Assembly (NCBI GenBank): GCA_041661745.1
Contig: JBAZTR010000003.1
Coordinates: forward strand, 91,007 to 155,006
DNA length: 64,000 bases
Direction: 5' to 3'
Source of the DNA: Patescibacteria group bacterium
GTDB taxonomy: Bacteria > Patescibacteriota > Patescibacteriia > UBA9934 > GWF2-40-263
In this document: positions 1-44,625 of the stretch, one piece after another
Numbering within the stretch: the stretch's first letter is position 1
How the letters are laid out: each line of letters opens with the position of its first letter
Notes under the pieces: model-generated
What the model was told of the DNA's origin: nothing
Databases searched by the model: none
Seen by the model: only the letters and a program-made list of their open reading frames with translations
Translations under genes and position numbers: made by a program

Positions 1-1
1 G

Positions 2-2447: not shown

Positions 2448-2484
2448 AAGCAACCTGGTTCTTTCACCCTCGAAAGGAGAAAAA

Positions 2485-3504: not shown

Positions 3505-3567
3505 GAAACGACTCCCCACAACTTACATAGAACATCCAAAGTGTTTTGTGTATCGGGGAGTCGTTTC
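3505..3567 (+). other. Long inverted repeat/hairpin in the 5' region of the LTD surface-protein gene
   Basis: gaaacgactcccc ... ggggagtcgtttc forms a 13-bp perfect stem with a ~37-nt loop, followed by a T-rich tract. Confidence 0.4.
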
Positions 3568-3631
3568 TTTTCTCGTTAACGAGGGTATGGCTGTTCGCGA
3601 CAGTCACGAAAGATCATTAACAATTAAATAT

Positions 3632-19111: not shown

Positions 19112-19201
19112 GGAGAGGTGGCTGAGTGGTCTAAGGCGCCAGACTCGAAATCTGGTGTACTCGCAAGGGTACCGTGGGTTCAAATCCCACCCTCTCCGCC
19201 A
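19112..19201 (+). tRNA. tRNA-Ser (anticodon CGA), long variable arm, CCA encoded
   Basis: GGAGAGGTGGCTGAGTGGTCTAAGGCGCCAGACTCGAAATCTGGTGTACTCGCAAGGGTACCGTGGGTTCAAATCCCACCCTCTCCGCCA. Confidence 0.9.
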
Positions 19202-19213
19202 GAAAAAAATTCC

Positions 19214-19238
19214 AAACCGCCATCACGGCGGTTTTTTG
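19214..19238 (+). terminator. Rho-independent terminator
   Basis: aaccgcc-atcac-ggcggtt plus a T run. Confidence 0.6.
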
Positions 19239-19302
19239 TTTTTTGTACACAGAACAAACCTTCCTGTTTTTAAAATAACCGTTTATAATAACGGACACAA
19301 TT

Positions 19303-20136
19303 ATGAAAATAAAAATCGCTGTCGTTCAGTTTAAGATCGCCCAACTCGATCCACAAAAAAATTATCAAAGGTTGGAACAGTTTGTTAAAAAGGCCCAAGC
19401 CAAAAAAGCGCAAATTGTCGTCTTTCCCGAAGATTGTATAAGCGGCTCCATTGAAGACTGCGCCACTGGAGAGAAAAATGGTTTTAAAAAATGGCTTGAT
19501 ACAGATGGCCAGACTAAAAAATTTTTTCAGGGCCTGGCTGTTAAATATAATATCGACATCGTTAGCGGCTCGAATACTGAACTCGTCGGAAAGAAAATTT
19601 TTAACACCACTTATTACATAGACTCTCAAGGTAAAATTTTGGGTCAGTACCGAAAAAATCATCTTTATAAAACAGAAAGGTCATTTATCACAGCGGGAAA
19701 TAAAACCTCGGTTTTCAAAACCGCTTGGGGTAAGGTCGGTCTGGCTATTTGCTGGGATATTACTTTCGCCGACATCTTTAAAAAGATGTCTAAGGCTGGA
19801 GTTAAAATGATTTTTTGTCCAAGTTATTGGTGGCGCGGCATTTCAGAAGATGCCTACACTCTTAACCGTCGTTATCAAGAAAAGGCTATCGATGCTCTGT
19901 GTTTAACTAGGGCCTTTGAAACAAAAAGTGTCTTTGTTTATGCCAACGCGGCCGGTAAAGCCGTCTACAAAAACAAAACCAGTGATGTTTTGATTGGTCA
20001 CTCGCAAATTACCATGCCAATTTTAGGGGTGGTTAAAAAACTTAATCACAATTGGGAAAGCATGTTTATCCAGGAAGTCGATCTGGGCCTGCTTGATAAG
20101 GCAAAGAAAATCTTCCACAACAAAAAGAGAGGTTAG
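19303..20136 (+). CDS. Carbon-nitrogen hydrolase (nitrilase superfamily)
   Basis: Catalytic triad context FPE (Glu), RKNHLY (Lys) and LAICWD (Cys). Confidence 0.75.
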   Translation: MKIKIAVVQFKIAQLDPQKNYQRLEQFVKKAQAKKAQIVVFPEDCISGSIEDCATGEKNGFKKWLDTDGQTKKFFQGLAVKYNIDIVSGSNTELVGKKIFNTTYYIDSQGKILGQYRKNHLYKTERSFITAGNKTSVFKTAWGKVGLAICWDITFADIFKKMSKAGVKMIFCPSYWWRGISEDAYTLNRRYQEKAIDALCLTRAFETKSVFVYANAAGKAVYKNKTSDVLIGHSQITMPILGVVKKLNHNWESMFIQEVDLGLLDKAKKIFHNKKRG

Positions 20137-20145
20137 CAAACAAAA

Positions 20146-20173
20146 AAGCCTTGTTAAAAACAAGGCTTTTTTA
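20146..20173. terminator. Bidirectional terminator
   Basis: agccttg-ttaaaaac-caaggct followed by T6. Confidence 0.6.
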
Positions 20174-20184
20174 AATTAATTTTA

Positions 20185-20802
20185 TTATGGCATGCGCAAA
20201 CGCCTTTTGATTGGAAGTAATAAAAGTGCCCCAATAATTCCAACAACCGTCAGTCCAATAATAAGAGTTGGAAAACCCATGGTCATGACCAAAACTCCAC
20301 CAATGGTCGCGGCTAAAGCCGAACCGAGGTCGGTTAGCATAAAATAAATTCCCCATTCGACCCCGACTCTTTCCTCGGAAATATGTCTGGTAAAAATTGC
20401 CATGAAAGATGGAAAAGCCATGGCCGCTCCGACCCCTAATAAAAATTCAACAACATAAAGCTGAAATGGGGTGTGAATAAACAAAAAGGCTAAAGGAATA
20501 ATGGCAGAAAAGAAGGTGCCAATAAACATTATTAAAAAATCATCACGCTCACCTTTTATTTTGTCCATCAAGTGGGCAAAAGGAACTTGTAATAAACTTT
20601 TAGAAAGCAAAAACACCGTGGCGGCAATACCAACAACCATGGCGTTGGCTCCAACAATATAATTTTCAATAAAAAGAGCGAAGACTGGCCCAAGAAGGCC
20701 TTTAGCACTAATAAAAACAACGTCGGAAATAATCAGAAATCTAATTGTTAACCCGGTATCAGCCAACAAATACTTTCGAAGAGGAACAGAGAAACGCCCC
20801 AT
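20185..20802 (-). CDS. MFS-like six-TM membrane protein (half-size or truncated MFS transporter)
   Basis: 205-aa ORF with six hydrophobic helices and MFS-like loop motifs. Confidence 0.45.
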   Translation of the reverse strand: MGRFSVPLRKYLLADTGLTIRFLIISDVVFISAKGLLGPVFALFIENYIVGANAMVVGIAATVFLLSKSLLQVPFAHLMDKIKGERDDFLIMFIGTFFSAIIPLAFLFIHTPFQLYVVEFLLGVGAAMAFPSFMAIFTRHISEERVGVEWGIYFMLTDLGSALAATIGGVLVMTMGFPTLIIGLTVVGIIGALLLLPIKRRLRMP

Positions 20803-20852
20803 AGCGCAAATAAAGAAAAAATAGTATATTAATGACAGTAATATTTTACCCT

Positions 20853-21722
20853 ATGAAGATAAGAAAAGCTATTATCCCGGTCGCGGGCATGGGCACCCGT
20901 TTTTTACCGGCTTCCAAGGCCCAGCCAAAGGAAATGTTGGCCGTAGTCGATAAGCCCATCATTCAATATATCGTGGAGGAAGCGGTAGCCGCCGGCATTG
21001 AAGAAATTATTTTCGTTACCGCCATCGGCAAGCGAGCGATTGAAGATCATTTTGATCGCAACTTCGAGTTGGAGTATCGCTTGGAACAAAAAAACAAAAT
21101 CAAAGAGCTTAAAGAAATCCAAAGCATTGGTAAACTGGCCAAGTTTGCTTTTGTCCGTCAAAACAAACCGCTGGGCGATGGCCATGCTGTGCTCTCAGCC
21201 TTACCGTTTATTGAAAAACACGAGCCTGTAGCCGTGCTGTTTGGCGATGACATTATTGATAGCAAGGTGCCGGCCATCAAACAGTTGATTGAGGTTTACG
21301 AAAAATATCAGGATCCGGTCATGGCTTTACAAAAAGTTCCAAAAAAACTAGTTCCCAGCTTTGGGGTTATTGGTGGTAAAAAAGTTGATACAAAAACCTG
21401 GCAAATCGATCGTTTTGCCGAAAAACCAGCTTTGAAAGAGGCACCCTCTGATTTAATCGTCATCGGCCGTTATGTCTTGACTCCGGAAGTTTTGACCCTG
21501 CTCAAAGACACCAAACCCGGCAAGGATGGTGAAATTCGCCTAGCCAACGCTTTCGAAACTTGGCTTTCCATGAACCGTGCACTGTACGGCTGTGCTTACG
21601 AAGGAACTTGGTACAACTGCGGAAACAAACTGGGTTTTCTTATGGCTCAAGTTGAATTGGGTCTTAAACACCCGGAGGTTGGTAAGGATTTCAAAAATTA
21701 TCTCAAAAAATTCCTTGGTTAA
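20853..21722 (+). CDS. galU: UTP--glucose-1-phosphate uridylyltransferase
   Basis: MKIRKAIIPVAGMGTRFLPASKAQPKEMLAVVDKPIIQY is the GalU N-terminal signature; about 290 aa. Confidence 0.85.
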   Translation: MKIRKAIIPVAGMGTRFLPASKAQPKEMLAVVDKPIIQYIVEEAVAAGIEEIIFVTAIGKRAIEDHFDRNFELEYRLEQKNKIKELKEIQSIGKLAKFAFVRQNKPLGDGHAVLSALPFIEKHEPVAVLFGDDIIDSKVPAIKQLIEVYEKYQDPVMALQKVPKKLVPSFGVIGGKKVDTKTWQIDRFAEKPALKEAPSDLIVIGRYVLTPEVLTLLKDTKPGKDGEIRLANAFETWLSMNRALYGCAYEGTWYNCGNKLGFLMAQVELGLKHPEVGKDFKNYLKKFLG

Positions 21723-21732
21723 TTTTCAAAAT

Positions 21733-23103
21733 ATGCGACGACTTTTGTCCTTTTTGCTTCTTCTAACCCTTTTACCTTTAATGGGTGCCGGCTGTGGTCA
21801 GTCCCAAGCCGAAAAAGAAGCGGCCTTGCCGGTGACTCTTCAAGTATGGAGCGTTTTTGAAGATCAAGACGCTTTTGAGGAACTAATGAACGCGTATCGA
21901 ACCGTTCATTCCAATGTTTCTTTTAACATGAAGCTTCTTCGCTACGATGAGTACGAGGACGAGTTACTGCAGGCCTTTGCCCGCGGTGAGGGCCCGGATA
22001 TTTTTTCGATTCACAACACCTGGCTTGGTGAATATAAAGATTTAATAACTCCACTGCCAGCCTCGTTGTCTATTCCCTACACCGAAACAACGGGAACTAT
22101 AAAAAAAGAAACCGTTACCACCTTGCGTGAGGAAAAAGCTATTACTCAGCAGGAACTTAAAAACAATTATGTCGATGTAGTGTCTGATGATTTAATTCAA
22201 TCATATCAACCTGACCCAAACAAAGATGCCGAAGACAAAATTTTCGCCATTCCTCTTTACGTCGATACTTTGGTTCTATATTCCAACACTGATATCTTAA
22301 ATTCCGCCAATATTGCCGAACCGCCTGCGACTTGGCAGCTGTTTCAAGATCAGGTCAAACTTATCACTAAGGTAAATACCAATGGTGATATCACCCAATC
22401 GGCAGCAGCCTTCGGGGCCGGTGAGAATGTGGAGCGTTCCATGGATATTTTGTCAGTACTCATGATGCAAAACGGCACGGTTATGGAAAAGAATGGCAAA
22501 GCTGTCTTTTCCGAGCAAACCGAAGATCGTCGCACTCCGTCCTCCGAAGCTTTAAGCTTCTACTCTGCTTTTGCTAACCCGGTAAAAGATGTTTATACCT
22601 GGAATTCGGATATGACCGATTCTTTTGACGCTTTTGTTAACGGTGAAACGGCTTTCTTTTTTGGCTACGCTTATCATTTGCCGCTTATAAAACAGCAAGC
22701 GTCAAAACTTGAATATCGTATTTCCGCCCTGCCACAAATTGAAAACGGAAAAAATGTTAATTTTGCCAACTACTGGGCTTGGACAGTTTCTAAAGCCTCG
22801 AACAATTCCAAGTGGGCTTGGGATTTCATTCAGTATGCCGCCAAGAAAGAAAATGTCTCAACTTATCTTGAAAACACTGTCCGCCCCACAGCCTTGCGCG
22901 GACTTATTGCCGAGCAATCAGAAGATGATGACTTGGGTATCTTTGCCAACCAGCTTTTAACAGCCGAAAGTTGGTATCATGGAAACAATGCCAATGTGGT
23001 TGAGGAAGCTTTTATTTCTTTAATCGATAGTTCTATTACTTCCGGTCTTGAACTTGGAGACTTAATCAGAGAAGCAGAAAATAAAGTTAATCAGACTTAT
23101 TAA
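21733..23103 (+). CDS. ABC transporter substrate-binding (lipo)protein, family 1 sugar-type
   Basis: Signal/lipobox MRRLLSFLLLLTLLPLMGAGC and SBP_bac_1-like length and composition. The track ORF begins upstream at 21577; the signal-peptide start is 21733. Confidence 0.65.
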   Translation: MRRLLSFLLLLTLLPLMGAGCGQSQAEKEAALPVTLQVWSVFEDQDAFEELMNAYRTVHSNVSFNMKLLRYDEYEDELLQAFARGEGPDIFSIHNTWLGEYKDLITPLPASLSIPYTETTGTIKKETVTTLREEKAITQQELKNNYVDVVSDDLIQSYQPDPNKDAEDKIFAIPLYVDTLVLYSNTDILNSANIAEPPATWQLFQDQVKLITKVNTNGDITQSAAAFGAGENVERSMDILSVLMMQNGTVMEKNGKAVFSEQTEDRRTPSSEALSFYSAFANPVKDVYTWNSDMTDSFDAFVNGETAFFFGYAYHLPLIKQQASKLEYRISALPQIENGKNVNFANYWAWTVSKASNNSKWAWDFIQYAAKKENVSTYLENTVRPTALRGLIAEQSEDDDLGIFANQLLTAESWYHGNNANVVEEAFISLIDSSITSGLELGDLIREAENKVNQTY

Positions 23104-23104
23104 T

Positions 23105-23749
23105 ATGCGTCTTTTTATTGTTTCAATCTTTGCGGTTTTACTCCTTGCCCCCTTCGCGGTTTTGGCCGATGCCCAAACCGGTACGTGTGATGTTGCCGGT
23201 GGAGTAACCGATGTCAAAGATGTTGGAATATTTCTATCCGGCGTCTGTAACGAATGTTGGAACGAGGGTAATTGTAGTTTAACCGATTTCATGACCGTTG
23301 TTGCCAATACCGGCAACTTTATTTTGAGCATTATCGCCGGTCTGGTTTTCTTAGTCTACATTTTGGGTGGCTTCTTCTGGATCATTGCCCATGGTGATAA
23401 AGGCATGGTGGAAAAAGGGAAAAAATGGATTAAAAACGCCACCGTTGGTTTGGTCATTGTCCTTTTTGCCTACACTGGAGTGGTTGCCTTGCGGGCGGCC
23501 ATTACCGGCGAAACCGCAAGTACTGGATATGTCATCTGCTCAGGAGCAGACACTGATGGCGATTCGTGTGCCGCCAATTCAAAGTGTGATGGTTTCTCTT
23601 GTGTCAGCTCTTGTGAAAAATCATCTGATGGGGCTATGTGCACCGACGCGGAAACAGCCGCCACTTTCAAAAACACCGAATACTCTTGTACCGATGGCAC
23701 ATCATCCTGCCCCGCGGATTCACAAAAATGTTGCACTCCGGTTCCGTAA
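23105..23749 (+). CDS. T4SS/VirB2-TrbC-like pilin family protein (paralog 1) with a Cys-rich C-terminal extension
   Basis: Sec signal peptide, then two hydrophobic helices flanking the charged loop AHGDKGMVEKGKKWIKN. C-terminal 75 aa contain 12 Cys. One of 5 tandem paralogs. Confidence 0.5.
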   Translation: MRLFIVSIFAVLLLAPFAVLADAQTGTCDVAGGVTDVKDVGIFLSGVCNECWNEGNCSLTDFMTVVANTGNFILSIIAGLVFLVYILGGFFWIIAHGDKGMVEKGKKWIKNATVGLVIVLFAYTGVVALRAAITGETASTGYVICSGADTDGDSCAANSKCDGFSCVSSCEKSSDGAMCTDAETAATFKNTEYSCTDGTSSCPADSQKCCTPVP

Positions 23750-23761
23750 AATTAAAATAAT

Positions 23762-24097
23762 ATGTCTTTAAAAAAAATATTTTTCTCTCTATCCGTTCTC
23801 GGTCTTGGATCTTTACCCTTCACTGCCTCGGCCGTGGCTTTAACTAATCCTCTCGGCACTACGGACATTCGTGTCTTGGCCGGCAACATTATCAAGGCGG
23901 TTTTGGGTCTGGCTGGCGTGGCCGCATTTTTAATGTTTATCTGGGGCGGGGCGCAATGGATTATTTCCGGTGGCAAAAAAGAAACCATTGAAAAAGGAAA
24001 ACAAACGGTTGTTTGGGCAACGTTGGGCCTAGTTTTTATCTTTGTCTCCTACGCCGCTCTCTATACTCTGCTTGCGATTATCGGTTCGGCTTCTTAA
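23762..24097 (+). CDS. T4SS/VirB2-like pilin family protein (paralog 2)
   Basis: Signal peptide plus LMFIWGGAQWIISGGKKETIEKGKQTVVWATLGLVFIFVSYA; same architecture as the neighbours. Confidence 0.5.
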   Translation: MSLKKIFFSLSVLGLGSLPFTASAVALTNPLGTTDIRVLAGNIIKAVLGLAGVAAFLMFIWGGAQWIISGGKKETIEKGKQTVVWATLGLVFIFVSYAALYTLLAIIGSAS

Positions 24098-24163
24098 AAA
24101 ACACTTTAGTTTTCCACACCCCCTCGTCCTCTTCGTCCTCTTCGTCCCCCCAAACCCCTTAAA

Positions 24164-24174
24164 TGTGCTATAAT
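24164..24174 (+). promoter_or_regulatory. Extended -10 promoter (TGtgcTATAAT) for pilin paralog 3
   Basis: The 11-mer tgtgctataat is identical to the one at 10289-10299. A 9-bp tandem repeat cgtcctctt lies upstream. Confidence 0.45.
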
Positions 24175-24206
24175 AAACTCGTTTTAAAAAATCTTAATTA
24201 ATTATT

Positions 24207-24599
24207 ATGACAAAACTCAAAACCCTATTAGCTGGCCTGACCATTTTCGTCTTGTCAGCCCCGATCGCGCGTGCCGATGTTGTCACTGTTAACGAAATGT
24301 TTGGTGGCAACGCTGGCGATGAATTCGCCAACGAAGCTGGCCTTGGGGCCGGCGACCTCACTTCGACCATTGCCAACCTTATCCGCGTTGGTCTTGGCTT
24401 CCTCGGTATCGTCGCCGTCGTTATCATTCTCATCGGCGGTTTCAAGTGGGTAACAGCTGGTGGTGAGGAAGAAAAAGTTAAGAAAGCTAAAAAGTATATC
24501 TTCCAAGGCTTAATTGGTTTGGTCATTGTCTTGGCCGCTTACGCCATTGCCACCTTTGCTTTGGGTGCGATTACTACAGCCATGAATTCGTCCGTTTAA
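24207..24599 (+). CDS. T4SS/VirB2-like pilin family protein (paralog 3)
   Basis: Signal peptide, then IILIGGFKWVTAGGEEEKVKKAKKYIFQGLIGLVIVLAAYA. Confidence 0.5.
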   Translation: MTKLKTLLAGLTIFVLSAPIARADVVTVNEMFGGNAGDEFANEAGLGAGDLTSTIANLIRVGLGFLGIVAVVIILIGGFKWVTAGGEEEKVKKAKKYIFQGLIGLVIVLAAYAIATFALGAITTAMNSSV

Positions 24600-24669
24600 A
24601 AAATTCTCCCCCTTTTACAAAAAGGGGGATAACGCGAGCTGGTGAGTTTTTACCTCACCAATTCACGTT

Positions 24670-24999
24670 ATGAACGATTCAAAACTTCTTGCCGCGGCGA
24701 TTGATACGGTAACCGAGGGCTTGACTGTAACCGGCAGTACCGCTGGTTTTTCAAACCAAACACTCATCGATCTTATTCCCGGAGCAATCAATGTTCTTTT
24801 AGGACTTTTGGGAATTGTTGCTTTAGCTTTTACAATCTACGCTGGTATTCTCTACTTAACTTCACAAGGCAATAAAGACGCGGTGGAAAAAGCAAAGAAG
24901 GTTCTTACCTATTCGGCTATTGGCATGGTTCTAATTGTTGCTTCCTATGCCATTTCCAACTATCTCTTAGGCGCTCTAATTTCACTCTTCTCTGAATAG
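24670..24999 (+). CDS. T4SS/VirB2-like pilin family protein (paralog 4)
   Basis: LYLTSQGNKDAVEKAKKVLTYSAIGMVLIVASYAISNY; near-identical core to paralog 5. Confidence 0.5.
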   Translation: MNDSKLLAAAIDTVTEGLTVTGSTAGFSNQTLIDLIPGAINVLLGLLGIVALAFTIYAGILYLTSQGNKDAVEKAKKVLTYSAIGMVLIVASYAISNYLLGALISLFSE

Positions 25000-25056
25000 A
25001 TAGTCACTAAATTATTCCGTAAAAAATCTTTTAAAAAAAATAATTAATTTAAAAAT

Positions 25057-25449
25057 ATGAACAAAATTTTCGCAACAATAGTGGCTTTTGGGCAGGTCTA
25101 TCTACTCTTTCCTCTTATGGCCTCGGCAGCAGTTCCAACCGGTTTGAGCGGAGCCAATACCGGTTTAACAAATATCGCTACCAGCGCTAATATACAGAAC
25201 TCTGGAGATTTAACAGTGTTAATTGGTAAAGGTATCAATGTCATTCTTGGTCTTTTGGGTATCCTGTTCCTGATCTTTGTTCTCTACGCTGGTTTTCTTT
25301 ATTTGACTGCACAAGGTGCTGACGAGCCAGTTAAAAAAGCCAAAAAACTTCTTACTAACTCTATCATTGGTCTGGTTATCATAATTGCGGCCTACGCCAT
25401 TTCCAACTACGTCATTGGAGCGTTGACTTCCATAACCTCCGCTACCTAA
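25057..25449 (+). CDS. T4SS/VirB2-like pilin family protein (paralog 5)
   Basis: LYLTAQGADEPVKKAKKLLTNSIIGLVIIIAAYAISNY. Confidence 0.5.
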   Translation: MNKIFATIVAFGQVYLLFPLMASAAVPTGLSGANTGLTNIATSANIQNSGDLTVLIGKGINVILGLLGILFLIFVLYAGFLYLTAQGADEPVKKAKKLLTNSIIGLVIIIAAYAISNYVIGALTSITSAT

Positions 25450-25456
25450 AAAAATA

Positions 25457-25494
25457 AAACGCGTTTTGACCATTTGGCCAAGACGCGTTTTTTG
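25457..25494. terminator. Terminator hairpin after the pilin array
   Basis: aaacgcgttttgacca-ttt-ggccaagacgcgttt followed by T6. Confidence 0.5.
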
Positions 25495-25559
25495 TTTAAA
25501 CAAATACCCCGGCCCGCAAACATTTCTGTTGCGAACCGGGGGTGACGCTTCCCCACCCT

Positions 25560-26300
25560 CTAGAACGAGGGGGGGACGGAGAGTTCCTGCGGCCCGGGAA
25601 GATCTCCGAAGATTCTCCGGGTGATTTCGCCGGAATCGACCAGCCAGTAGCCGGGCCGACTCTCCGTGACTTCTCGGAGGACGAAGTTGGACGACGCCCC
25701 AGGGGTGCCGATCAACCAGATCGTGCCCTCCCCCGACCAGGTGACCGGGGTGCCGGACATCTCGACCTCGGAGACGCGATCGTCTCCGTTGAAGTTGCCG
25801 ACGACCGTCCGGACCCGACCGAACCGATCGATGACCGGGACGATCCCTTCGGGCCCGGCCACGGTGTAGGTCCGGCCGCGGTCCAGCTGGATCGTGGCGC
25901 AGTGGTCGCACTGCAGCCACCGGACCAGTCCCAGGGGGTTGTAGGAAAACGCCCGGAGCGGCGGGTCCATCATCTCCGGCGCCTGGACACCGCCGACCGG
26001 GAAGGCCGGGGGCATCGGGCGGATGACAGGAACCGGCTCGGGGACGGACGCAGGCTTGGCGGCCACGGCCAACTTGGCCTCGGCCGCGTCCGCGCGCCAC
26101 TGGGCCCACGCGAGGTCGACGGTCTGGATGCAGTCCTGGTCGTCGCCGACGCAGGCCTGCTTCAGCGTCAAGTAGCAGTCGATCGGATCGACCGCTTCCT
26201 TGCACGCCCCGAGCTCGGCCGCGGTGGCGGCGAGGGCGGAGGTGGAGGCGAAGAACGCGATGATGGCCGCGGCGAGGGCGGCGAGGATGGAACGGATCAT
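25560..26300 (-). CDS. Hypothetical secreted protein (high-GC island gene)
   Basis: Signal peptide MIRSILAALAAAIIAFFASTSALA; Cys-containing mature region. Coding GC is far above the window background. Confidence 0.45.
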   Translation of the reverse strand: MIRSILAALAAAIIAFFASTSALAATAAELGACKEAVDPIDCYLTLKQACVGDDQDCIQTVDLAWAQWRADAAEAKLAVAAKPASVPEPVPVIRPMPPAFPVGGVQAPEMMDPPLRAFSYNPLGLVRWLQCDHCATIQLDRGRTYTVAGPEGIVPVIDRFGRVRTVVGNFNGDDRVSEVEMSGTPVTWSGEGTIWLIGTPGASSNFVLREVTESRPGYWLVDSGEITRRIFGDLPGPQELSVPPSF

Positions 26301-26351
26301 GGTGAATCTCCAGAAAACGGAAGGGATGGATTGGATTGGACCGGAGCCAGA

Positions 26352-26789
26352 TTACTCGCCGGACTCCAGGATGACCCGGAAGTCGGCGCGCGACCTCTCG
26401 AGTTCGACTCGCACCTTCTCGAGCTCCAGGAGGAGCTGCCGGTCGATAACGAGCGTTGCACCACGGCTGTCCATGGCCTGGGTCATGCCCGACTGCTGGA
26501 GAGAGACCCAGTCGGTGAGACGGGCTCCCGGCGTGGCGGACCACGCCTCGAACGGGAAGAGCCATCCGCACTGGCTGGGGTTCACCATGCATGCCGCCTG
26601 CGCTTCGGCCAGGGTGTACCTGGCGGAGGCGTCGATCACGACGGCCGCGCCACGGGGCGTGACCGCGCGAGCGGCCGCCTCGAGTTCGCCATTGACTCCC
26701 CGATGCACAGAGACGCACCCGTTGAGGACGAACAGTACGGCGAGAACGAGGACGGAGAGGATGGAACGCATGGATGCTCCTTGGCGCAA
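26352..26789 (-). CDS. Hypothetical lipoprotein (high-GC island gene)
   Basis: Signal peptide with lipobox LNGC (MRSILSVLVLAVLFVLNGC); 145 aa. Confidence 0.45.
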   Translation of the reverse strand: MRQGASMRSILSVLVLAVLFVLNGCVSVHRGVNGELEAAARAVTPRGAAVVIDASARYTLAEAQAACMVNPSQCGWLFPFEAWSATPGARLTDWVSLQQSGMTQAMDSRGATLVIDRQLLLELEKVRVELERSRADFRVILESGE

Positions 26790-27088
26790 TGCACCTGAAC
26801 GGATTGTGGTTGGTTGAGTTGGTTTTCAGGTTGAAAAGAACCGAAGAAGCAGCAAAATTTCCTTTGTTTAGCGGCTTTTTTGGTTCTTCTAAGCTTTCAA
26901 AAGTACTCAATAATATATCACAAAATTGGGGTTTTGTCAAGGCATGCGACTGAAGAATTTATCTAATTTAAGCTAATTTTAGTTCTCCCTCCCTCATATA
27001 ACTCTTGTTTTTTATATGGGGGAGGGATGGGGAGAGGAAAAAATAAAAGCCCCAGCCTGAGTTAACAAGCCGGGGCGAGGAGTCGGGC

Positions 27089-29497
27089 CTAGTGCCCGGA
27101 ACTCCTGAGACAGGTCGCATGGTTCACCGGATCCTGGATCCGGGAACAGTCGATCTGCTTCCGCTTCCCCGAAGGAGTCGAGGCAGCGGGCGGGTGGGAC
27201 GTGGTGGCTGTAGTGGGTGCCACCTGGGAACTGGCGGCCGCGGGCTGGCTGGGCACCGCGGTCGGGGCGGCTGGAGCCGGCTGAACGATCTGGGCCGACG
27301 TGTTCGGGTCGTCGCCGAATCCGAATTTACAGTCAACCAAGAGCGACACGCCGACGATCAGGAACACCAGCGAGCCGAACAGGACGGCCAGAATGGCCAG
27401 GTACGAACCAGCGGCTCGGAAGCCGCGTGCTGTTCCGCTCTGGCTCTCGTCCTGAGCACCGAGAACGGCCAGGAGCAAGCCACCAGCCACAGCCACAGCC
27501 GGCGACACCACCAGGATCCAGGCCCAGAACGTGTGGGAGCAACCCCACATGGAGGGGACCGGAGCCGAGGAGGCAGTCGAGGCCGACTGTCCGCCGATGA
27601 CGCTGGCCAACTCTTCGGCCTGCGCCTTCTTGGCCTTGGCCTTGTCCAGCTCCTCTGGGAACCGGTCAGGCTTCAGGTCGTACGTGAAGTGGCCGAAGCC
27701 ATCCTCACGGACGCGGACTTCCAGAGCCCCCGGGAGGTTGGCGACCAACCGCGCTTCGGAGTAGACATGGCCATTGCTGACCGTGACCATTCCGTGCTTG
27801 GTGGCCGCGACGCCGAAGACCTCCTCGAGGGAGTACTCTCCGTCGTCCGTCTGGTCGTAGGGGTTGGAGTAGACGACCACGAACTCGTTGGTCGTTCCCT
27901 GCACCACCCTGGCCTCAACGGGTTCCCAGGCCCACTCGGTTCGGGCCATGAGAGCCGCTAGCACTGCGAAGAGCGGGATTGCTCCCACCCACGTGACGGT
28001 GCGGAGGAACTTGGACTCCCAGATGTCCATCCTCCTCACTTGGGAGTAGCCGACCACAGCCGCGGTCGACAGCATCGCGGCAACGATCAGGAGAGATCGT
28101 GCCTGAATGCCGCCAGCCAGACCAACTGTGATCAAGCCAACTGCCCCGAAGAAGAGGGTGAAGAACGCCCCGGAGAACCCGAGGTTCCGAAGCCACGGCA
28201 CCGAGGTCGTGGCTGGCGTGACGTTGAAGCCCAACCGCTGTCCGACGATTCGGAACTGATCCATGAACCAGTCCACCAACCCCTGGATGGGGATGAGGAG
28301 GAGCATGGAGATGGTGAGCAACACGGTGCCGGCCATCCACTTCCAGAGCTGGCCGTGGTACCAGCCGTCCAAGAAGAACATCTCGGCCGACCAGTAGGTG
28401 AAGCGCAGGTAGCCGTAGCCCAGAAGCCCGATCACGAGGAGCAAAATCCCGAAGATTCCAGCCACGACCGCGACGACCGCCTTCCAGTTCCTTTCGGAAA
28501 TCCAGTGAGAGATCCTGTCCGTGGCCGTGTCGAGGTGCCCGGCGAGCCTGTCCTTGAGGCGCGGATTGAACACCGCGTCCACCCGGCGCACGAAGCGCTG
28601 GTAGAGGTCGTTGGTCGGCTCGACGCCCTTCGTTCCTTCATTCAGAAGGTCCTTGAGCAAGCGGATCTTGCTCCAAGCATCCTCCTCGAAGGCACGCTGG
28701 ACGAGAGCCGCAGCCAGGCCCCTCTCGGACATGGCGCGGTCGACCAGGCGCCCGAAGACCCAGCGTTCCTCCTCGGACAGGGTGTCCTCGAAGGCCTTGG
28801 GCTTGGGCGGATCGATCGACGACGAGGAGCCGGCTCCGGTCATGAGGATCTTGACCAACGAGCCACCGCAGCACGGGCAGATCCGAAGACCCGTCTGCTT
28901 AGCGATTGCCTCCCAGTCAGCCTCATCGACGCGATACTTCTGGGCCGGACGGATAACCGTCTTCTTCGGCGACTTGGGATTGCTCATATCGACCGTGGCC
29001 ACCTCGGTGTTGGCCAACTCGAAAGCAGCGGTCCGCTGCAAGAGCTCGGCACACTTGCTTGTGGTGTGAAGGCCCATGGCGGCCGGCTCGATCCAGTACT
29101 TGTCCGGAGCCAACGGCTCCTTGGCCTTGGCATCGCTGCCGGCCTTGACCTTGATCTTGTCGGTCATCTCCTTGGTGAAGTCCAACCAGGACTTGGCACC
29201 ACCGACGACGACCGACTCGAGGATCTCGGTGAGGTACGGCTCGAAGACCGCCCCGATGGGGCCGATCTTGCGGAGGGCCGCCCTGACCGGCTCCTTGAAG
29301 GCTCCGGCCGTGGCTCCGGCACCGGCGATGACGCTCCACTTGGCCGGCTCCGGCATATTTGAGATGGCCACAGCCAGATTCTCGAGAGTCGGCGACTTGG
29401 TGATGGCCGAGGCCCCGAGGTGGGCGATGATCGCCTCACCGGTCTCGGAGATGGCAGTGGAGAGAGCAGCGGAGGAAACGGAAGATGCGGTAGACAT
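27089..29497 (-). CDS. Large hypothetical polytopic membrane protein with a CPCCGG zinc-ribbon-like motif and a Pro/Ala/Thr-rich C-terminal tail (high-GC island gene)
   Basis: Start set at MSTASSVSS after a long 5' UTR that begins at an AT-rich TTGACA-17-TATAAAT promoter (minus strand, about 29640-29670). More than 8 hydrophobic helices. No family assigned. Confidence 0.5.
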   Translation of the reverse strand: MSTASSVSSAALSTAISETGEAIIAHLGASAITKSPTLENLAVAISNMPEPAKWSVIAGAGATAGAFKEPVRAALRKIGPIGAVFEPYLTEILESVVVGGAKSWLDFTKEMTDKIKVKAGSDAKAKEPLAPDKYWIEPAAMGLHTTSKCAELLQRTAAFELANTEVATVDMSNPKSPKKTVIRPAQKYRVDEADWEAIAKQTGLRICPCCGGSLVKILMTGAGSSSSIDPPKPKAFEDTLSEEERWVFGRLVDRAMSERGLAAALVQRAFEEDAWSKIRLLKDLLNEGTKGVEPTNDLYQRFVRRVDAVFNPRLKDRLAGHLDTATDRISHWISERNWKAVVAVVAGIFGILLLVIGLLGYGYLRFTYWSAEMFFLDGWYHGQLWKWMAGTVLLTISMLLLIPIQGLVDWFMDQFRIVGQRLGFNVTPATTSVPWLRNLGFSGAFFTLFFGAVGLITVGLAGGIQARSLLIVAAMLSTAAVVGYSQVRRMDIWESKFLRTVTWVGAIPLFAVLAALMARTEWAWEPVEARVVQGTTNEFVVVYSNPYDQTDDGEYSLEEVFGVAATKHGMVTVSNGHVYSEARLVANLPGALEVRVREDGFGHFTYDLKPDRFPEELDKAKAKKAQAEELASVIGGQSASTASSAPVPSMWGCSHTFWAWILVVSPAVAVAGGLLLAVLGAQDESQSGTARGFRAAGSYLAILAVLFGSLVFLIVGVSLLVDCKFGFGDDPNTSAQIVQPAPAAPTAVPSQPAAASSQVAPTTATTSHPPAASTPSGKRKQIDCSRIQDPVNHATCLRSSGH

Positions 29498-29714
29498 GGG
29501 ATTTCTTTCCGTGCGCTTTAAAGGCGCGTTTTGTTGTGAAGGGACATGGTTCCGCTCATTTTGCCAATCGTGGGGCAACCCCAACAGACGGCGAGACGGA
29601 AAATTGCCCTCTATACGGCCTTGTGGGCACGCACGGAGAACGTGTATTTATATCATATTTTTAAAGATTTGTCAACCGTGTTTCCCTCCATTTTTCGCTT
29701 AAATTAAACAAAAA

Positions 29715-29750
29715 ACCGCAACAAACGTATTTTTGTTTGCTGCGGAATCC
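29715..29750 (-). terminator. Rho-independent terminator for the oxidoreductase operon
   Basis: Minus strand reads ccgcagcaaac-aaaaatac-gtttgttgcgg-tttttt. Confidence 0.55.
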
Positions 29751-29760
29751 TAAAAAACCC

Positions 29761-30909
29761 TTATTTTCCCATCATTTTCAAAATTCGCTCACGTTCGGAA
29801 TTCTTGTTAATCATGGTCGCGCCAATAACCTTTCCCGCTTTAGAAAAAATCTGCAAAACCCCACCTGCGGCTGTATTTCCTTCAACTTTAATCTCATCAG
29901 CCCACTCGCGGTCAGTATCACCAAGAAAAATAGCATCAAGGCCTAAAAGACTCATGGGAGAGGTGGTAATTTGTTCAAATTTTTCCGTTTGACCAAAAAT
30001 ATTTCTGGCGGCAATTCGCCCCTGGGCTTGGGCCGCGGCCCAGGTTCCTATAATTCTATTTCTTCCGGAATGAACATCAAAAACTTCAGCCACGTCCCCA
30101 ATAGCGTAGACACCAGGGAGATTGGTTTCCATTTTTTCGTTCACAACAATTCCCTTCTCTGTTTTTAAACCGGAATCGCTAAGCCACGCGGTGTCCGGAT
30201 CAAGGCCAATGCCGACACCAAGAATTTTACAATCAAAATTTCCTTTATCGGTTTCTACGCCACTAATTTCCGTGTCACCTTGCAGACCAATAAATTTTGC
30301 CTCCGGCAAAACTTTGATTCCGTTTTTTTCCAGTTGTTGATTAATCAACTTGCCGCTTTCTTCATCAAGCACGCGCGACCAAAAATATTTTCCACGAAAA
30401 GCCACGGTAATATCCAAACCAAAATTTTTAAAAACATTTATAAATTCGCAACCAATCAAACCGCCACCATAAACGCCAACCGAACATGGTCGCGGTTGTT
30501 CGGAAACAAGCTGTTGCAGGTGATCAGCATCATCAAGTGTCCAAAGATAAGCCACCCCGCGGCGATCTTCCGGCAACGGTCTGGTGTTTCGTCCACCGGC
30601 AATAACCAATTTATCAAACGGAAGTTCGCGACCATTGGACAATAAAACAAAAGAATTTTTTACATCAACTTTTTCCACGCGTTCACCGGAAATCCATTCA
30701 ATATTATTTTCCGCGTACCAATTTTCTGTTTTCAAAAATACTCGTTCACGCGGCACTTTTCCTTTTAAATAGTGCGGCAAAAGTACCCGCGAATAAAGCG
30801 GATGATGTTCTTCGGAAACTAGTGTAATTTCGGCTTGCGGGTCGAATTTTCTAAGCTCTTCCGCACAAGTAGTGCCGGCAATGCCGCCGCCAACGATAAT
30901 AATTTTCAT
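29761..30909 (-). CDS. FAD/NAD(P)-binding pyridine nucleotide-disulfide-type oxidoreductase
   Basis: MKIIIVGGGIAGTTCAEEL Rossmann dinucleotide-binding motif and a second GG motif mid-protein. Confidence 0.7.
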   Translation of the reverse strand: MKIIIVGGGIAGTTCAEELRKFDPQAEITLVSEEHHPLYSRVLLPHYLKGKVPRERVFLKTENWYAENNIEWISGERVEKVDVKNSFVLLSNGRELPFDKLVIAGGRNTRPLPEDRRGVAYLWTLDDADHLQQLVSEQPRPCSVGVYGGGLIGCEFINVFKNFGLDITVAFRGKYFWSRVLDEESGKLINQQLEKNGIKVLPEAKFIGLQGDTEISGVETDKGNFDCKILGVGIGLDPDTAWLSDSGLKTEKGIVVNEKMETNLPGVYAIGDVAEVFDVHSGRNRIIGTWAAAQAQGRIAARNIFGQTEKFEQITTSPMSLLGLDAIFLGDTDREWADEIKVEGNTAAGGVLQIFSKAGKVIGATMINKNSERERILKMMGK

Positions 30910-30962
30910 AAGCCCTCTCCCCATCCCTCCCCCACCGCGGCGGTGAAGGAGGGAGAATGAGG

Positions 30963-31226
30963 TTATCTAGGAAACAATTGTTTGCCGGTCTCGTCAAAAA
31001 CCAACACGGCCAAAACCGGACAGGATTCAGCACCAAGAATAATATTCTGCAACTCTTCGTCAGTGACTTCGACTTCACGCTCGTAGGTCGGGCCACCGGG
31101 CGCTTGGCCGTGATCTAAAACATCGGCTTTGTTTTCGTTATTAAGCTGAAAGGTTTCCGGGGCCACGGTTACGCAAGCAGCCGCGCCGATACAAAGATCT
31201 GGATCGACTTTGATTCTTATTTTCAT
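30963..31226 (-). CDS. Ferredoxin (single [4Fe-4S] type)
   Basis: DPDLCIGAAACVTVAPETF ... ESCPVLA cysteine pattern. Confidence 0.65.
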   Translation of the reverse strand: MKIRIKVDPDLCIGAAACVTVAPETFQLNNENKADVLDHGQAPGGPTYEREVEVTDEELQNIILGAESCPVLAVLVFDETGKQLFPR

Positions 31227-31289
31227 AAAGAGAATTAAAGGGGATTAAAGAGAAGGAAAGGGAAGGAAAGTAGAAACTTTCCCTCTCTT

Positions 31290-31739
31290 TCACTCTCTTT
31301 CCAACTCTTTCCCTCCACTCAAATATTTTTCAATAGCATTACGTAAGGCCTTATCACACAAAACCGAACAATGAATTTTTCGCGGTGGCAGGCCGCTTAA
31401 ACGGTCAACAATCATTTGTGGGGTAATTTTTACCGCTTCATCGATGGTTAAACCGCCGTTTTCCAAACACATAACCGAACAAATTGAGGCCGCGGCAATG
31501 GCACTGGCACAACCAAAAGTTTTCCAAAGATAACCGACAATTTTTTTAGTGACCGGATCAATTTTTAACCACACTTTCATTTCATCACCACAAGCCGGCG
31601 AGCCGTAAACGCCGTAAGCATTAAAATCAGCTGGTGGATTTTCTTCTTTCAAAAAATTGCGTGGATTAAAAAAGTGATCTTTTACCGTGTCGCTGTAAAA
31701 CCAACTTTCAATTCCACATGAATCATTTACGTCGCCCAT
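31290..31739 (-). CDS. iscU: Fe-S cluster assembly scaffold, IscU/NifU-like
   Basis: Conserved Cys context GSPACGDEM, TFGCASAIAA, KIHCSVL. Confidence 0.8.
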   Translation of the reverse strand: MGDVNDSCGIESWFYSDTVKDHFFNPRNFLKEENPPADFNAYGVYGSPACGDEMKVWLKIDPVTKKIVGYLWKTFGCASAIAAASICSVMCLENGGLTIDEAVKITPQMIVDRLSGLPPRKIHCSVLCDKALRNAIEKYLSGGKELERE

Positions 31740-31740
31740 A

Positions 31741-32916
31741 TTATAACTTAACTGAACTGATTAAACGAAGTTTTTCCACAAGTGGTGGCAAAACTTTCAA
31801 AACATAATCTAAATCTTTTTGAGTGGTGGAATGTCCCAAAGTAAAACGCATGGCTCCGTGGGCTTCTTCGGGGGATTTCCCCATGGCCAACAAAACATGA
31901 CTCGGATCAAGCGAAGCGCTGGTGCAGGCGGAACCGGTTGAAATAAAGATTCCCTTAGCATCAAGATACAGCATTAAAGCTTCGCCCTCGATATCAGAAA
32001 AAGAAATATTGGCGTTGTTCGGCAAACGATTTAATGGGTGACCATTAAGTTTTGTTTTTGGAACCTTCAATAAAATTCCAGCAATAAATTTGTCGCGAAA
32101 TTTAATAAGACGTTCGCTTTCTTTATTCTTTTCTTTATCAGCCAGCTCAAGGGCCGCGGCCAATCCAACAATTCCGGCGACGTTTTCCGTACCCGGGCGA
32201 AGGCCGCGTTCTTGCGCGCCACCAAATTGTATTGGTTGAAGGCGCAAATCTTTTTTAAAATACAGAAGCCCAATACCTTTTGGCCCGTAAATTTTTGAAC
32301 CGTTAATCGTCATGGCATCGACATGAAGTTTTTCGACAGAAAGTTCTAAAGCCCCGGCCGCCTGACAAGCATCGGTATGAAAAATCGGATATTTTTTTTC
32401 ACCACGATGTTTTTGTAAACAATTTCCGATTTCGGCAATTGGTTGAATAGTACCAACCTCATTGTTGGCATACATAACGGAAACCAGAATCGTCTCCGGG
32501 CGCAGCGCGGCCTTAACCTTTTCTACTTCAACAACACCGTCGGAGTTAGGAGCAATTCGAGTAATCTCAAAACCCTCTTTTTCCAGTTGCGTCGCAGCTT
32601 CTAAAACAGCATGGTGTTCGATAGCTGAAACAATAATATGTTTCCCGGCCCCGGCGTTGGCCCGAGCAAACCCGAGAATGGCCAAGTTGTCAGATTCGGT
32701 TCCACCAGAGGTAAAAATTATTTCTTCTGATCGGCATGACAATATCTTAGAAATTTTTGTTCGCGCTGCTTCGATTGCGTCTTTCGCTTCCTTGCCTGGT
32801 GAGTGAAAACTGGAGGGGTTGCCAAACTTGTCGGTCAGCCACGGTTTCATAGCCTTAAAAACCCGCTGGTCAAGCGGGGTGGTCGCGGCATGGTCTAAGT
32901 AGACAAATCGTTCCAT
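31741..32916 (-). CDS. iscS: Cysteine desulfurase (IscS/NifS family, PLP-dependent)
   Basis: YLDHAATTP N-terminus, the PLP-lysine region and SGSACTS active-site Cys loop. Confidence 0.85.
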   Translation of the reverse strand: MERFVYLDHAATTPLDQRVFKAMKPWLTDKFGNPSSFHSPGKEAKDAIEAARTKISKILSCRSEEIIFTSGGTESDNLAILGFARANAGAGKHIIVSAIEHHAVLEAATQLEKEGFEITRIAPNSDGVVEVEKVKAALRPETILVSVMYANNEVGTIQPIAEIGNCLQKHRGEKKYPIFHTDACQAAGALELSVEKLHVDAMTINGSKIYGPKGIGLLYFKKDLRLQPIQFGGAQERGLRPGTENVAGIVGLAAALELADKEKNKESERLIKFRDKFIAGILLKVPKTKLNGHPLNRLPNNANISFSDIEGEALMLYLDAKGIFISTGSACTSASLDPSHVLLAMGKSPEEAHGAMRFTLGHSTTQKDLDYVLKVLPPLVEKLRLISSVKL

Positions 32917-33004
32917 AACTTCCTATAAGCTAACAAAAAAAGAGGTTTCGGACAAGCTCCGTCACCCCCTTAACGCCTTATAATGCCCGAATACCGCTTA
33001 AATT

Positions 33005-33202
33005 TTATTCAATTTCATCGTCCAAATCCAAATATTTCTCCGGCTCCTTCAAAAACTCGTTGCGGCAAGCTGTTGAGCAGAACGTTAAAACTACCCCGCC
33101 CTCAGACTCCTCGGTCTGAATACTCTCCGGGTCGTTTAGGGAGGCCAGACAAACATCACAAACATCGGAGGACTCCTCAGTAAATTTATCGAAAGATGCC
33201 AT
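33005..33202 (-). CDS. Small acidic Cys-containing protein (possible zinc-ribbon/metal-binding)
   Basis: 65-aa ORF with CDVC ... CSTAC pairs; lies between the Fe-S cluster genes and the VIT transporter. Confidence 0.35.
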   Translation of the reverse strand: MASFDKFTEESSDVCDVCLASLNDPESIQTEESEGGVVLTFCSTACRNEFLKEPEKYLDLDDEIE

Positions 33203-33229
33203 AAGTTCTAATTACAGAATACCAGAAAA

Positions 33230-33763
33230 TTACAATATAGTGTTAATACCGAAGTAATGGGAAACTGTCCAGCCAACCAAATAACCGATTCCCGCGGCCA
33301 CCAATGAAACCACAACCATTTCTATTGCTGTCTTCCAGCCGGCTCGTTTGGTAAAACGACCGGTCCAAAAACCAACCCCGGCCAAAGCAAGAACGGCTAA
33401 AATAACCGAAGGGAGAATAGCCAAATCCGGCGGCAAAAGAAGATAAGGAGTTAAAGGGAGCATTCCGCCAAAGACATAGGAAATAAACATAACGAAAGCG
33501 GCTTTAATCGATCGCTGGTGAACAACTTTGTCTGATTTCTCCTCAGCTCGCTCGGCTGTTTCGGTTGATAAAAAACTGCCGGCGGACATTGAGGTGGCTT
33601 CAACCGCCAAAATCACCAAACCTGAAAGAATAATAACCATGCGGTCTTCGGTACCAATGGCAATACCGGTAACCGCACCCATAGTGGAGACTAAACTATC
33701 CTCCAAACCAAAAACAATTTCTCGCACCGATTCGATAACTGAATTCTTTGTTCTTAAATGCAT
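33230..33763 (-). CDS. VIT1/CCC1 family iron/manganese transporter
   Basis: EDSLVSTMGAVTGIAIGT N-terminal VIT motif and five TM helices. Confidence 0.7.
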   Translation of the reverse strand: MHLRTKNSVIESVREIVFGLEDSLVSTMGAVTGIAIGTEDRMVIILSGLVILAVEATSMSAGSFLSTETAERAEEKSDKVVHQRSIKAAFVMFISYVFGGMLPLTPYLLLPPDLAILPSVILAVLALAGVGFWTGRFTKRAGWKTAIEMVVVSLVAAGIGYLVGWTVSHYFGINTIL

Positions 33764-33827
33764 ACGGTTGAATTATAACAGAAGGGGTTGAAAAAAGAAG
33801 AGTTTATGGATATACTTTAAAAAACTT

Positions 33828-34289
33828 ATGCAAATACCATCATCCCTTCATCCGTTTCACAAACGCACTTTAATTGTTGTCACCAACACCTTAAAAGCCA
33901 AAACTTTTTTGGCTGATGGGCTAAACCTAACCGAGGCCGGAGAGATTGACGTGACCTCTGATCTTGAACAAGAAAACGGCGAACGCGAGGCAATAAAATA
34001 CGGCGGAGCCAGTCAGCCTAATTTTGCTTCAAACGATGAATATGGCACAAAAAAGGACCATATTACCAAAGATCATTTTTATAATGCTTTAAACAAGGAA
34101 CTAATGCATCGAATGCAAAACAACGAATTTGATGTTTTGGCTTTTACTGTTCCAGAAGACCTGGAAAACGAACTGAAAGAATCGCTTCACGGACAGTTGT
34201 TAAAAAAGACGGAAATTTTTGTCCCAAAAAACTTGATGAATGACGATGTTTTAGACGTAGTTGCGGTAATCCAGGAAATGCCGGAATAA
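33828..34289 (+). CDS. Hypothetical protein
   Basis: 153-aa soluble ORF with no firm family assignment. Confidence 0.4.
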   Translation: MQIPSSLHPFHKRTLIVVTNTLKAKTFLADGLNLTEAGEIDVTSDLEQENGEREAIKYGGASQPNFASNDEYGTKKDHITKDHFYNALNKELMHRMQNNEFDVLAFTVPEDLENELKESLHGQLLKKTEIFVPKNLMNDDVLDVVAVIQEMPE

Positions 34290-34310
34290 AAGAAATAGAT
34301 ATTAAACAAC

Positions 34311-34340
34311 AAAAAATCTCGCCACAATGGCGAGATTTTT
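34311..34340. terminator. Bidirectional terminator
   Basis: aatctcgcc-acaat-ggcgagatt plus T6. Confidence 0.65.
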
Positions 34341-34415
34341 TGGAGGCCTGGGTGGGAATTGAACCCGCGCATAAGGGTTTTGCAGACCCTCGCCTTACCA
34401 CTTGGCTACCAGGCC
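34341..34415 (-). tRNA. tRNA-Cys (anticodon GCA), CCA encoded
   Basis: Minus strand reads GGCCTGGTAGCCAAGTGGTAAGGCGAGGGTCTGCAAAACCCTTATGCGCGGGTTCAATTCCCACCCAGGCCTCCA. The T-stem has one C-A mismatch. Confidence 0.75.
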
Positions 34416-39694: not shown

Positions 39695-39745
39695 AACTAT
39701 AATTATCTTTTATATATATTATTTATAGTAATAGTAGTAGGTGTT

Positions 39746-39754
39746 GTGGATAGA
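39746..39754. promoter_or_regulatory. DnaA-box-like 9-mer TGTGGATAG in the dnaA-dnaN intergenic region
   Basis: 8 of 9 match to TGTGGATAA, next to the AT-rich tract tatatatattatttatagtaatagtag. Confidence 0.4.
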
Positions 39755-39934
39755 GTGGAAAAACGAGGTTTTGGTCTAAAACAAGCGAAAAAAGAGATAG
39801 AGAAAAAGTGTGTAAGAAGTCAATTAAAAAGTAGTTAACAGTGAATAGAATTTACTCTTTTTTGATGGGGTTATTTCTTTAAGGTTTCTTCCCCCCGATA
39901 GACACAGACTTATTCACCTCTTATCCTTTGCGTT

Positions 39935-41338: not shown

Positions 41339-41415
41339 ATGGAGCATGGGGCCCAAAAGGGCAAAAAAGGTCGAAATTTGTTAGTTTTTGTTTACTTCGG
41401 CTTCTAGTTTACCAT

Positions 41416-44546: not shown

Positions 44547-44625
44547 AATGATTTTATTTTAGCAGAAACCAGGTTTGCTCAACAGCCGGTCTTTCGATAT
44601 GCTACAGATACTCTTGGGAGGCACA

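Follow-up and report, generated by a model that had tools for sequence, protein, structure and literature searches.

The window analysed here, a 64,000-nucleotide (nt) stretch of contig JBAZTR010000003.1 from the metagenome-assembled genome (MAG) GCA_041661745.1 of a Patescibacteria group bacterium, carries between 25.5 and 29.5 kb a high-GC island made up of three minus-strand genes, designated BIG, LIPO and SEC and referred to together as the cassette. BIG (27089..29497) encodes an 802-aa polytopic membrane protein, LIPO (26352..26771) a 139-aa lipoprotein and SEC (25560..26300) a 246-aa secreted protein. An initial annotation made from the sequence alone had described the island and its three secreted or membrane genes, and both were confirmed by composition, with a GC content of 61-73% in the island versus ~44% in the flanks. 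Using 1-kb windows, GC was 0.61-0.64 over 26-29 kb compared with 0.40-0.46 in the adjoining windows and ~0.44 across most of the 64 kb, and in 200-bp windows the profile climbed at ~25.45 kb, reached a maximum of 0.73 and dropped at ~29.55 kb, with a trough of 0.36-0.43 at 26.8-27.1 kb inside the island. GC at the first, second and third codon positions (GC1/GC2/GC3) was 0.60/0.48/0.83 for BIG, 0.69/0.49/0.82 for LIPO and 0.66/0.52/0.90 for SEC, whereas GC3 was 0.35-0.42 in a comparison set of six host genes of the window. Codon choice in the island is nearly inverted relative to the host (AAG 98% vs 23%, TTC 98% vs 29%, CAG 97% vs 24% and ATC 93% vs 26%). Long open reading frames (ORFs) were indeed found on both strands of the island, as had been noted, and codon-position GC identified the minus-strand frames as genuine, with the order GC3 > GC1 > GC2 that is typical of true high-GC genes. 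The plus-strand ORFs opposite them (418, 440 and 289 aa) were discarded as antisense shadows of the real frames because of their GC1 of 0.81-0.86. The GC-rich coding composition is thus genuine at all three codon positions. The non-coding parts of the cassette have 27-40% GC, with the exceptions of a structured leader (55%) and the terminator stems, and the pilin and SBP genes near the cassette, which also encode secreted or membrane proteins, have ordinary host composition.

BIG was delineated from its ORF, the NCBI annotation (an 802-aa hypothetical protein of a 'Patescibacteria group bacterium' MAG), hydropathy, AlphaFold2 (AF2) secondary structure and family alignments. The membrane protein of the initial annotation was upheld, but its length of 831 aa was not, because the TTG start that gives this length falls inside a conserved 5′ leader; translation from the ATG at 29497 gives 802 aa. 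The public gene call for the homologue on the related contig L089 (1979-2066) has the same fault, with a start 29 codons too early and within the conserved leader. The N-terminal soluble part of BIG (~335 aa) contains a C-x-x-C motif and is followed, by hydropathy and AF2 secondary structure, by five transmembrane helices, a beta-rich loop domain of ~100 aa and two more transmembrane helices, and the protein ends in a Pro/Ala/Thr-rich tail with a terminal Cys pair (C784/C796). In the 'CPCCGG' motif to which attention had been drawn, the outer two cysteines (C-x-x-C) are retained in both relatives whose alignment was read. LIPO was recognised from its ORF, its GC3 and its lipobox, L-N-G-C, of which G-C is invariant in 6/6 homologues; the lipobox had been correctly predicted, and the predicted length of 145 aa is reduced to 139 aa from the ATG at 26771, which has a Shine-Dalgarno (SD) sequence, AAGGAG, 6 nt ahead of it. 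Its C-terminus is helical, and a C-x6-C pair is present in most ingroup homologues and absent from L089 and from the outgroup contig L091. SEC, identified from its ORF, translation and codon-position GC, has a signal peptide ending ALA|A, four conserved Cys in its N-terminal part (C33, C42, C50, C57), a second Cys pair (131/134) that aligns in most relatives and a beta-rich C-terminal half; its homologues P0004 and P0005 and those of L089 and L091 have the conserved Cys and motifs in common. The signal peptide of SEC, the lipobox of LIPO, the seven hydrophobic segments of BIG and the conserved Cys pairs point to the cell envelope as the location of the three proteins, and what they do there is inferred from sequence features only. 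LIPO and SEC begin with a common 25-nt stretch (26747-26771 and 26273-26297) that is 88% identical and encodes M(I)RSIL, which suggests duplication or conversion of a signal-peptide start.

Two conserved, AT-rich sigma-70-type promoters drive the cassette, and its transcription is convergent with that of an adjacent pilin array. The first, P1 (29646..29675, minus strand), was identified from sequence and alignments as TTGACA-17-TATAAAT with TG at the extended -10, ~140 nt ahead of the MSTASS start of BIG, exactly as initially annotated, and is kept in 6/6 ingroup relatives read. The second, P2 (26912..26940, minus strand; TTGACA-17-TATATT with an extended -10 TG; scan match 11/12), serves LIPO and SEC, is followed downstream by an AT-rich leader of ~140 nt and lies in a region conserved in the related contig L084. 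A few tens of nt upstream of the -35 elements of both promoters, at 29694-29712 and 26958-26976, are related AT-rich motifs (TTTAATTTAAGCG / TTAAATTAGC), also present in L001, L084 and L096, that could serve as a common operator or UP element. In the same six ingroup relatives there is almost no variation in P1, in the TTAAATTAGC/TTTAATTTAAGCG motif that precedes it or in the initial ~50 nt of the leader. Between the two transcription units lie an intrinsic terminator after BIG (27049..27076, minus strand; an 11-bp stem followed by a T-run) and, between this terminator and P2, a hairpin of the CCCTCC...GGGAGGG type with a ~14-bp stem (26986..27027), which was found as annotated within the AT-rich gap; an analogous polypyrimidine/polypurine hairpin is present in L001. 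LIPO and SEC are separated by a 51-nt spacer. A GC-rich hairpin past the SEC stop codon (25507..25542, minus strand) adjoins the terminator of the pilin array (~25455-25495, plus strand), so transcription converges at the SEC end.

The leader of BIG (~143 nt; 29492..29646, minus strand) was defined by alignments, a consensus fold and a covariance model. In the consensus fold a 5′ UCUCC pairs with the GGAGG ribosome-binding site and encloses three internal hairpins; 94% of cells are paired, compared with 37-54% when the partners are slid, and four pairs show compensatory changes. The SD helix is itself uninformative because it never varies among the sequences. A covariance model built without the window matched the window leader with 51.9 bits (E 1.5e-12) and detected a single convincing copy per locus. 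The window copy has a ~50-nt insertion relative to six relatives. The folding z-score of the window leader is -3.06. The L091 leader differs from that of the ingroup, and a metagenome scan with the leader motif returned the L084 contig only. Searches of Rfam gave only tRNAs at gathering score, and over 26.7-29.8 kb there was no credible match even with E values of up to 10 admitted. The leader resembles SD-sequestering leaders (translational riboswitches and RNA thermometers) in that a conserved 5′ anti-SD UCUCC is paired to the GGAGG that shortly precedes the start codon and in the compensatory changes of its internal hairpins. Unlike those, it has no Rfam match, and its regulatory role is one that we infer, as only seven sequences exist and the SD helix is invariant.

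The initial annotation had proposed that the island might be a recent horizontal acquisition or an assembly or binning chimera, and its extreme compositional contrast and sharp borders would fit either. However, contig L002 of the Logan assemblies (SRR18595301) is 100% identical to window 19173-34400 (15.2 kb) and contig L003 (SRR6484324) to window 19174-30954 (11.8 kb), each spanning both junctions. This identity of assemblies from two other runs over the two junctions excludes a chimera. The suggested search for islands at the same site in related candidate phyla radiation (CPR) genomes found them, with the same junctions, in seven lineages. The complete order PyrRedox - BIG - LIPO - SEC - pilin array is present in L084 (a 173-kb contig), L089 and L091 (a 191-kb contig), PyrRedox being the oxidoreductase gene beside BIG, and the partial contigs L001, L085, L095 and L096 each show part of it. 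All seven related contigs that reach the site thus carry the cassette and none shows an empty site, although the sample is small. Recent acquisition is excluded because the same cassette occupies the same site in seven diverged lineages, in which it is syntenic with flanking core genes that are only 66-92% identical, or ~59% identical in the outgroup L091. No integrase or transposase was detected in or beside the island by a significant Pfam, PHROG or NCBIfam match (the neighbours are pilins, SBP, PyrRedox, ferredoxin and NifU genes), no direct repeat brackets 25.4-29.7 kb, and no tRNA lies at the island edges, the nearest being at 19.1 kb and 34.3 kb. Recent import by this genome or a chimera is therefore barely credible. 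A diversity-generating retroelement target was also considered and set aside, there being no template- or variable-repeat-like (TR/VR-like) repeats in 24.8-30.2 kb.

Genomic islands are reported to be common in Patescibacteria (PMC12455944). The cassette resembles a mobile genomic island or integrative element in that its composition departs from that of the host (GC3.82-.90 vs.35-.42, with the GC contrast given above), but it has no mobility gene, att repeat or tRNA anchor, and there is no empty site among the relatives. It likewise resembles ORFan islets of atypical composition, as viewed within the amelioration framework (Lawrence & Ochman 1997, cited in PMC12455944), since its GC and codon usage are far from those of the host at all codon positions and its genes encode orphan secreted or membrane proteins with signs of net GC loss. 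Unlike such islets it is not patchy but present in every sampled relative, it outlasts the synonymous saturation of host genes, and its GC excess is found only in coding sequence, the embedded promoters and spacers being host-like.

No family could be assigned to the three proteins, in agreement with the initial annotation and with its reading of the island as an unknown cassette. BIG, LIPO and SEC, and likewise their family alignments, had no significant match in Pfam, PHROGs or NCBIfam, the PADLOC models of anti-phage defence returned 0 families for five proteins, and a sequence search of the PDB had no match with E below 0.3. A collection of 5.8 billion clustered proteins yielded two matches for BIG and three for SEC, and a full HMMER scan of 1.84 billion representative proteins gave 11 matches. 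All matches with readable context sit in the same syntenic CPR locus, except P0006 on contig L094. The phage, plasmid and IMG/VR collections searched contained no relatives of the cassette, and a genome-contig scan with the PyrRedox protein returned only relatives of <=34% identity and no CPR relative. The cassette is not a recognisable member of a type IV secretion system (T4SS), defence or Rfam family, and its protein family is restricted to this CPR clade. The initial annotation had also allowed that the proteins might prove to be ordinary conserved CPR proteins with unusual GC3, in which case a foreign origin would fail; this description largely holds, though for one narrow clade only.

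Divergence is several-fold faster in the cassette than in the neighbouring genes, and modules of the cassette are exchanged. In the comparison of the window with L084, amino-acid identity is 30/46/53% for BIG/LIPO/SEC, compared with 66-92% for flanking proteins (with the exception of an MFS gene, 55%), whose DNA is ~72-80% identical; the overall range for the cassette proteins is 24-53%. For PyrRedox, identity is 75-82% among ingroup members and 44-47% to L091, an outgroup in which flanking core genes are ~59% identical. The faster divergence of the cassette suggests either relaxed constraint or diversifying selection. BIG in particular is a mosaic. Its first ~450 nt are common to L001, L084, L089 and L095 at 74-77% nucleotide identity, as in host genes, and in the window this type is replaced by an unrelated N-terminus; at its centre the window protein is closest to that of L001 (42-44% amino-acid identity). 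The last 800 nt of the L001 gene match a BIG-like gene on L094 at 86% identity, the remainder being unrelated, and from this shared C-terminal part it follows that BIG modules move between loci or genomes. L094 (JGI 3300045008 Ga0438309_0015695, 1-5740) has 57% GC and carries its BIG-like gene beside aminopeptidase-like and orphan sigma-70 genes, the latter with no relative above 35% identity, and may represent either a paralogous locus or a reservoir of GC-rich sequence.

This mosaic structure bears on the possibility that the cassette or its modules have been repeatedly replaced from an unsampled GC-rich reservoir (an organism, a plasmid or a second locus), resetting their composition each time. 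The 57% GC of L094, the 800-nt module that it shares with L001 and the N-terminus of the window protein, which differs from the type common to four relatives, all speak for such exchange. However, orthologous AT-rich promoters, leader and spacers have been conserved from lineage to lineage, so each replacement would have had to break exactly at the gene borders; no reservoir was found among the 1.84 billion representatives or the viral and plasmid collections, and L094 may itself be another CPR locus. Repeated replacement is on balance an improbable source of the composition, though a better candidate than recent import.

The cassette is GC-enriched in every lineage, with GC3 of 0.41-0.91, and the degree of enrichment is strongly graded. 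GC3 of BIG and of the host gene PyrRedox, respectively, is.83/.37 in the window,.67/.27 in L084,.69/.40 in L089,.77/.47 in L095,.57/.30 in L096 and.41/.33 in L091, and the cassettes of L001 and L085 equal that of the window in GC-richness. In L091 BIG, GC1 (.66) and GC2 (.49) are still raised. Decay of third positions ahead of the others is reportedly the order expected under amelioration (Lawrence & Ochman 1997). The excess of identity over chance was computed at the 4-fold sites of those codons that are conserved across lineages. For host genes it was 0.19-0.25 within the ingroup and 0.02 against L091; for cassette genes it was 0.07-0.21 between ingroup members, and no excess was left in comparison with L091. 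Synonymous sites of the host genes are at saturation or close to it. Majority-rule counts of GC-to-AT against AT-to-GC changes at 4-fold sites were 15:1 for SEC and 14:4 for the BIG N-terminal module, compared with 35:23 and 43:40 for PyrRedox. A stationary simulation, which takes in the bias of parsimony, gave expectations of 8.3:2.9 for SEC (p=.008) and 11.4:7.4 for the BIG N-terminal module (p=.12). We read this as net GC loss under way, so that the cassette would not be at compositional equilibrium. The third-position pyrimidine/purine balance was considered as a test of in-situ GC gain against import and was not used, as at high GC this balance looks alike in many bacteria.

The reading that we prefer, with about as much confidence as doubt, is that the island is a long-resident, vertically inherited, clade-specific three-gene cell-envelope module whose foreign GC is slowly ameliorating; that the composition is foreign in origin and partly ameliorated is probable. 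In this account the composition would stem from a high-GC source, acquired no later than the radiation of the clade; amelioration would have been slow and uneven, with the window copy the least decayed and L091 the most. A decay model with star-tree branch lengths from host 4-fold sites and an ancestral GC at 4-fold sites (GC4) of.95-1.0 predicted GC4 of ~.63 for L084 and ~.70 for L089, compared with observed values of.65-.68 and.70. Several observations weigh against this account. The window GC4 of.85 exceeds the model ceiling of.74-.77, window BIG GC3 is equal (.82-.86) at conserved, diverged and unalignable codons, and the internal spacers of the cassette are AT-rich. A single acquisition before the split cannot give GC3 of.8-.9 by inertia because L091 has the cassette and host 4-fold sites are saturated (.02) at that distance. 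Moreover, no donor emerged from the scan of 1.84 billion representative proteins, with its 11 family members, or from the phage, plasmid and IMG/VR collections, where no relatives were found. A single old import with neutral amelioration is only a rough fit. On our reading, import or replacement of the ingroup cassette took place close to the root of the ingroup, or else a force of some kind slows or counteracts its decay.

Such a force is the core of the chief alternative, which we consider possible but clearly less likely: that the cassette is native or very old and that high GC is held in its coding sequences by codon or mRNA selection or by GC-biased gene conversion, the latter resulting from frequent recombination at a diversifying locus for surface proteins, making it an equilibrium and not a relic. 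The presence of the cassette in L091, beyond synonymous saturation, and its GC enrichment in every lineage are consistent with maintenance, as are island 4-fold sites that are near-randomised between lineages (excess identity.07-.21) yet GC-rich, GC3 that does not drop at diverged and unalignable codons relative to conserved ones, and a window GC4 above the upper bound of the decay model. The mosaic modules show that recombination happens, and selection acting on the coding level is compatible with AT-rich spacers beside GC-rich genes. On the other hand, gene conversion should enrich the spacers too, the surplus of GC-to-AT changes in SEC exceeds the stationary expectation, and GC3 is strongly graded among lineages and nearly gone in L091. 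The nearby genes for other secreted or membrane proteins (pilins and SBP) are compositionally normal, and no bacterial mechanism is known to us by which three genes alone would acquire a GC3 offset of +0.45. More doubtful still is the full proposition that the clade has kept a hypervariable, recombining surface cassette 20-25 GC points above its genome (GC3 up to +0.45), in coding sequence only and past synonymous saturation. If this were so, a locus-specific force (codon or mRNA selection, or strong GC-biased conversion) would hold three genes off mutational equilibrium, the 'foreign' signature of the cassette would be no evidence of transfer, and a maintained GC excess would represent compositional disequilibrium confined to particular genes, something rare in bacteria.

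Returning to the preferred reading of a long-resident envelope module, the 7-TM protein BIG, the lipoprotein LIPO and SEC, a secreted protein containing disulfides, would form a surface complex with a part in envelope or host-cell contact, under diversifying pressure, and a host-contact role might be exercised alongside the VirB2-like pilins encoded next to it, while the leader would gate translation of BIG in response to a signal. For the curation of MAGs, the cassette is a clean counter-example to the rule that atypical GC means recent horizontal gene transfer or contamination, being reproducible, syntenic and old. It adds three new protein families and an unclassified SD-sequestering leader, found in one Patescibacteria clade only and always beside a VirB2-like pilin array.

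The pilin array lies past the SEC end of the cassette and consists of five VirB2-like T4SS_pilin (PF18895) genes of host-like composition, identified by domain matches (23105..25449, plus strand); it is found beside the cassette in all relatives with enough sequence, and the SBP gene is also on this side. Arrays of 2-11 variable VirB2-like pilin genes have been described in Patescibacteria, where T4SS genes are often near dnaA; such arrays possibly aid adaptation to different host strains, and one was reported to be essential in a cultured CPR strain (PMC12102498). The cassette resembles these arrays (PF18895/PF04956), one of which, here of five genes, it always adjoins, in being an envelope-exposed, fast-diverging gene set near dnaA/dnaN. 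It differs from them in that BIG, LIPO and SEC match no T4SS component profile in Pfam or NCBIfam, and in that the pilin genes, unlike the cassette, are host-normal in composition. The window ORFs that were scanned included neither a VirB4 nor a VirB6. On the other side of the cassette, PyrRedox (a Pyr_redox_2 oxidoreductase gene of host-like composition, 29761..30924, minus strand, assigned by domain matches) is followed by genes for ferredoxin, NifU and cysteine desulfurase. The window as a whole belongs to the core chromosome, with genes for RuvB, PBP1A, DnaN, DnaA, trigger factor and PNPase; the distance from the cassette to dnaA/dnaN is 10-16 kb. The pilin array is 13-16 kb from dnaN/dnaA (38576-41356, minus strand), in agreement with the origin-proximal placement of T4SS genes (PMC12102498).

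Four more genes of the window have raised GC3 against the background of 0.35-0.42: 60826-61893 (plus strand, 0.68), 51907-52302 (minus strand, 0.67), 44575-45144 (plus strand, 0.63) and 2485-3366 (plus strand, 0.60). They comprise a 355-aa orphan with a transmembrane-like N-terminus, two other orphans and a phosphoribosyltransferase, and are unrelated to the cassette. The tRNA-Ser(CGA) gene at 19112-19201 is 98% identical between the window and L084, and both Logan contigs stop within this gene (19173 and 19174), where assembly was probably interrupted by a repeated k-mer. Between its NifU and ferredoxin genes, L084 has an inserted gene (4386-4748) for a four-helix-bundle protein of the bAvd / 23S-rRNA-IVP-like type; the window lacks it at this site and has a 68%-identical copy at ~59923-60193, beside an NYN-domain gene.

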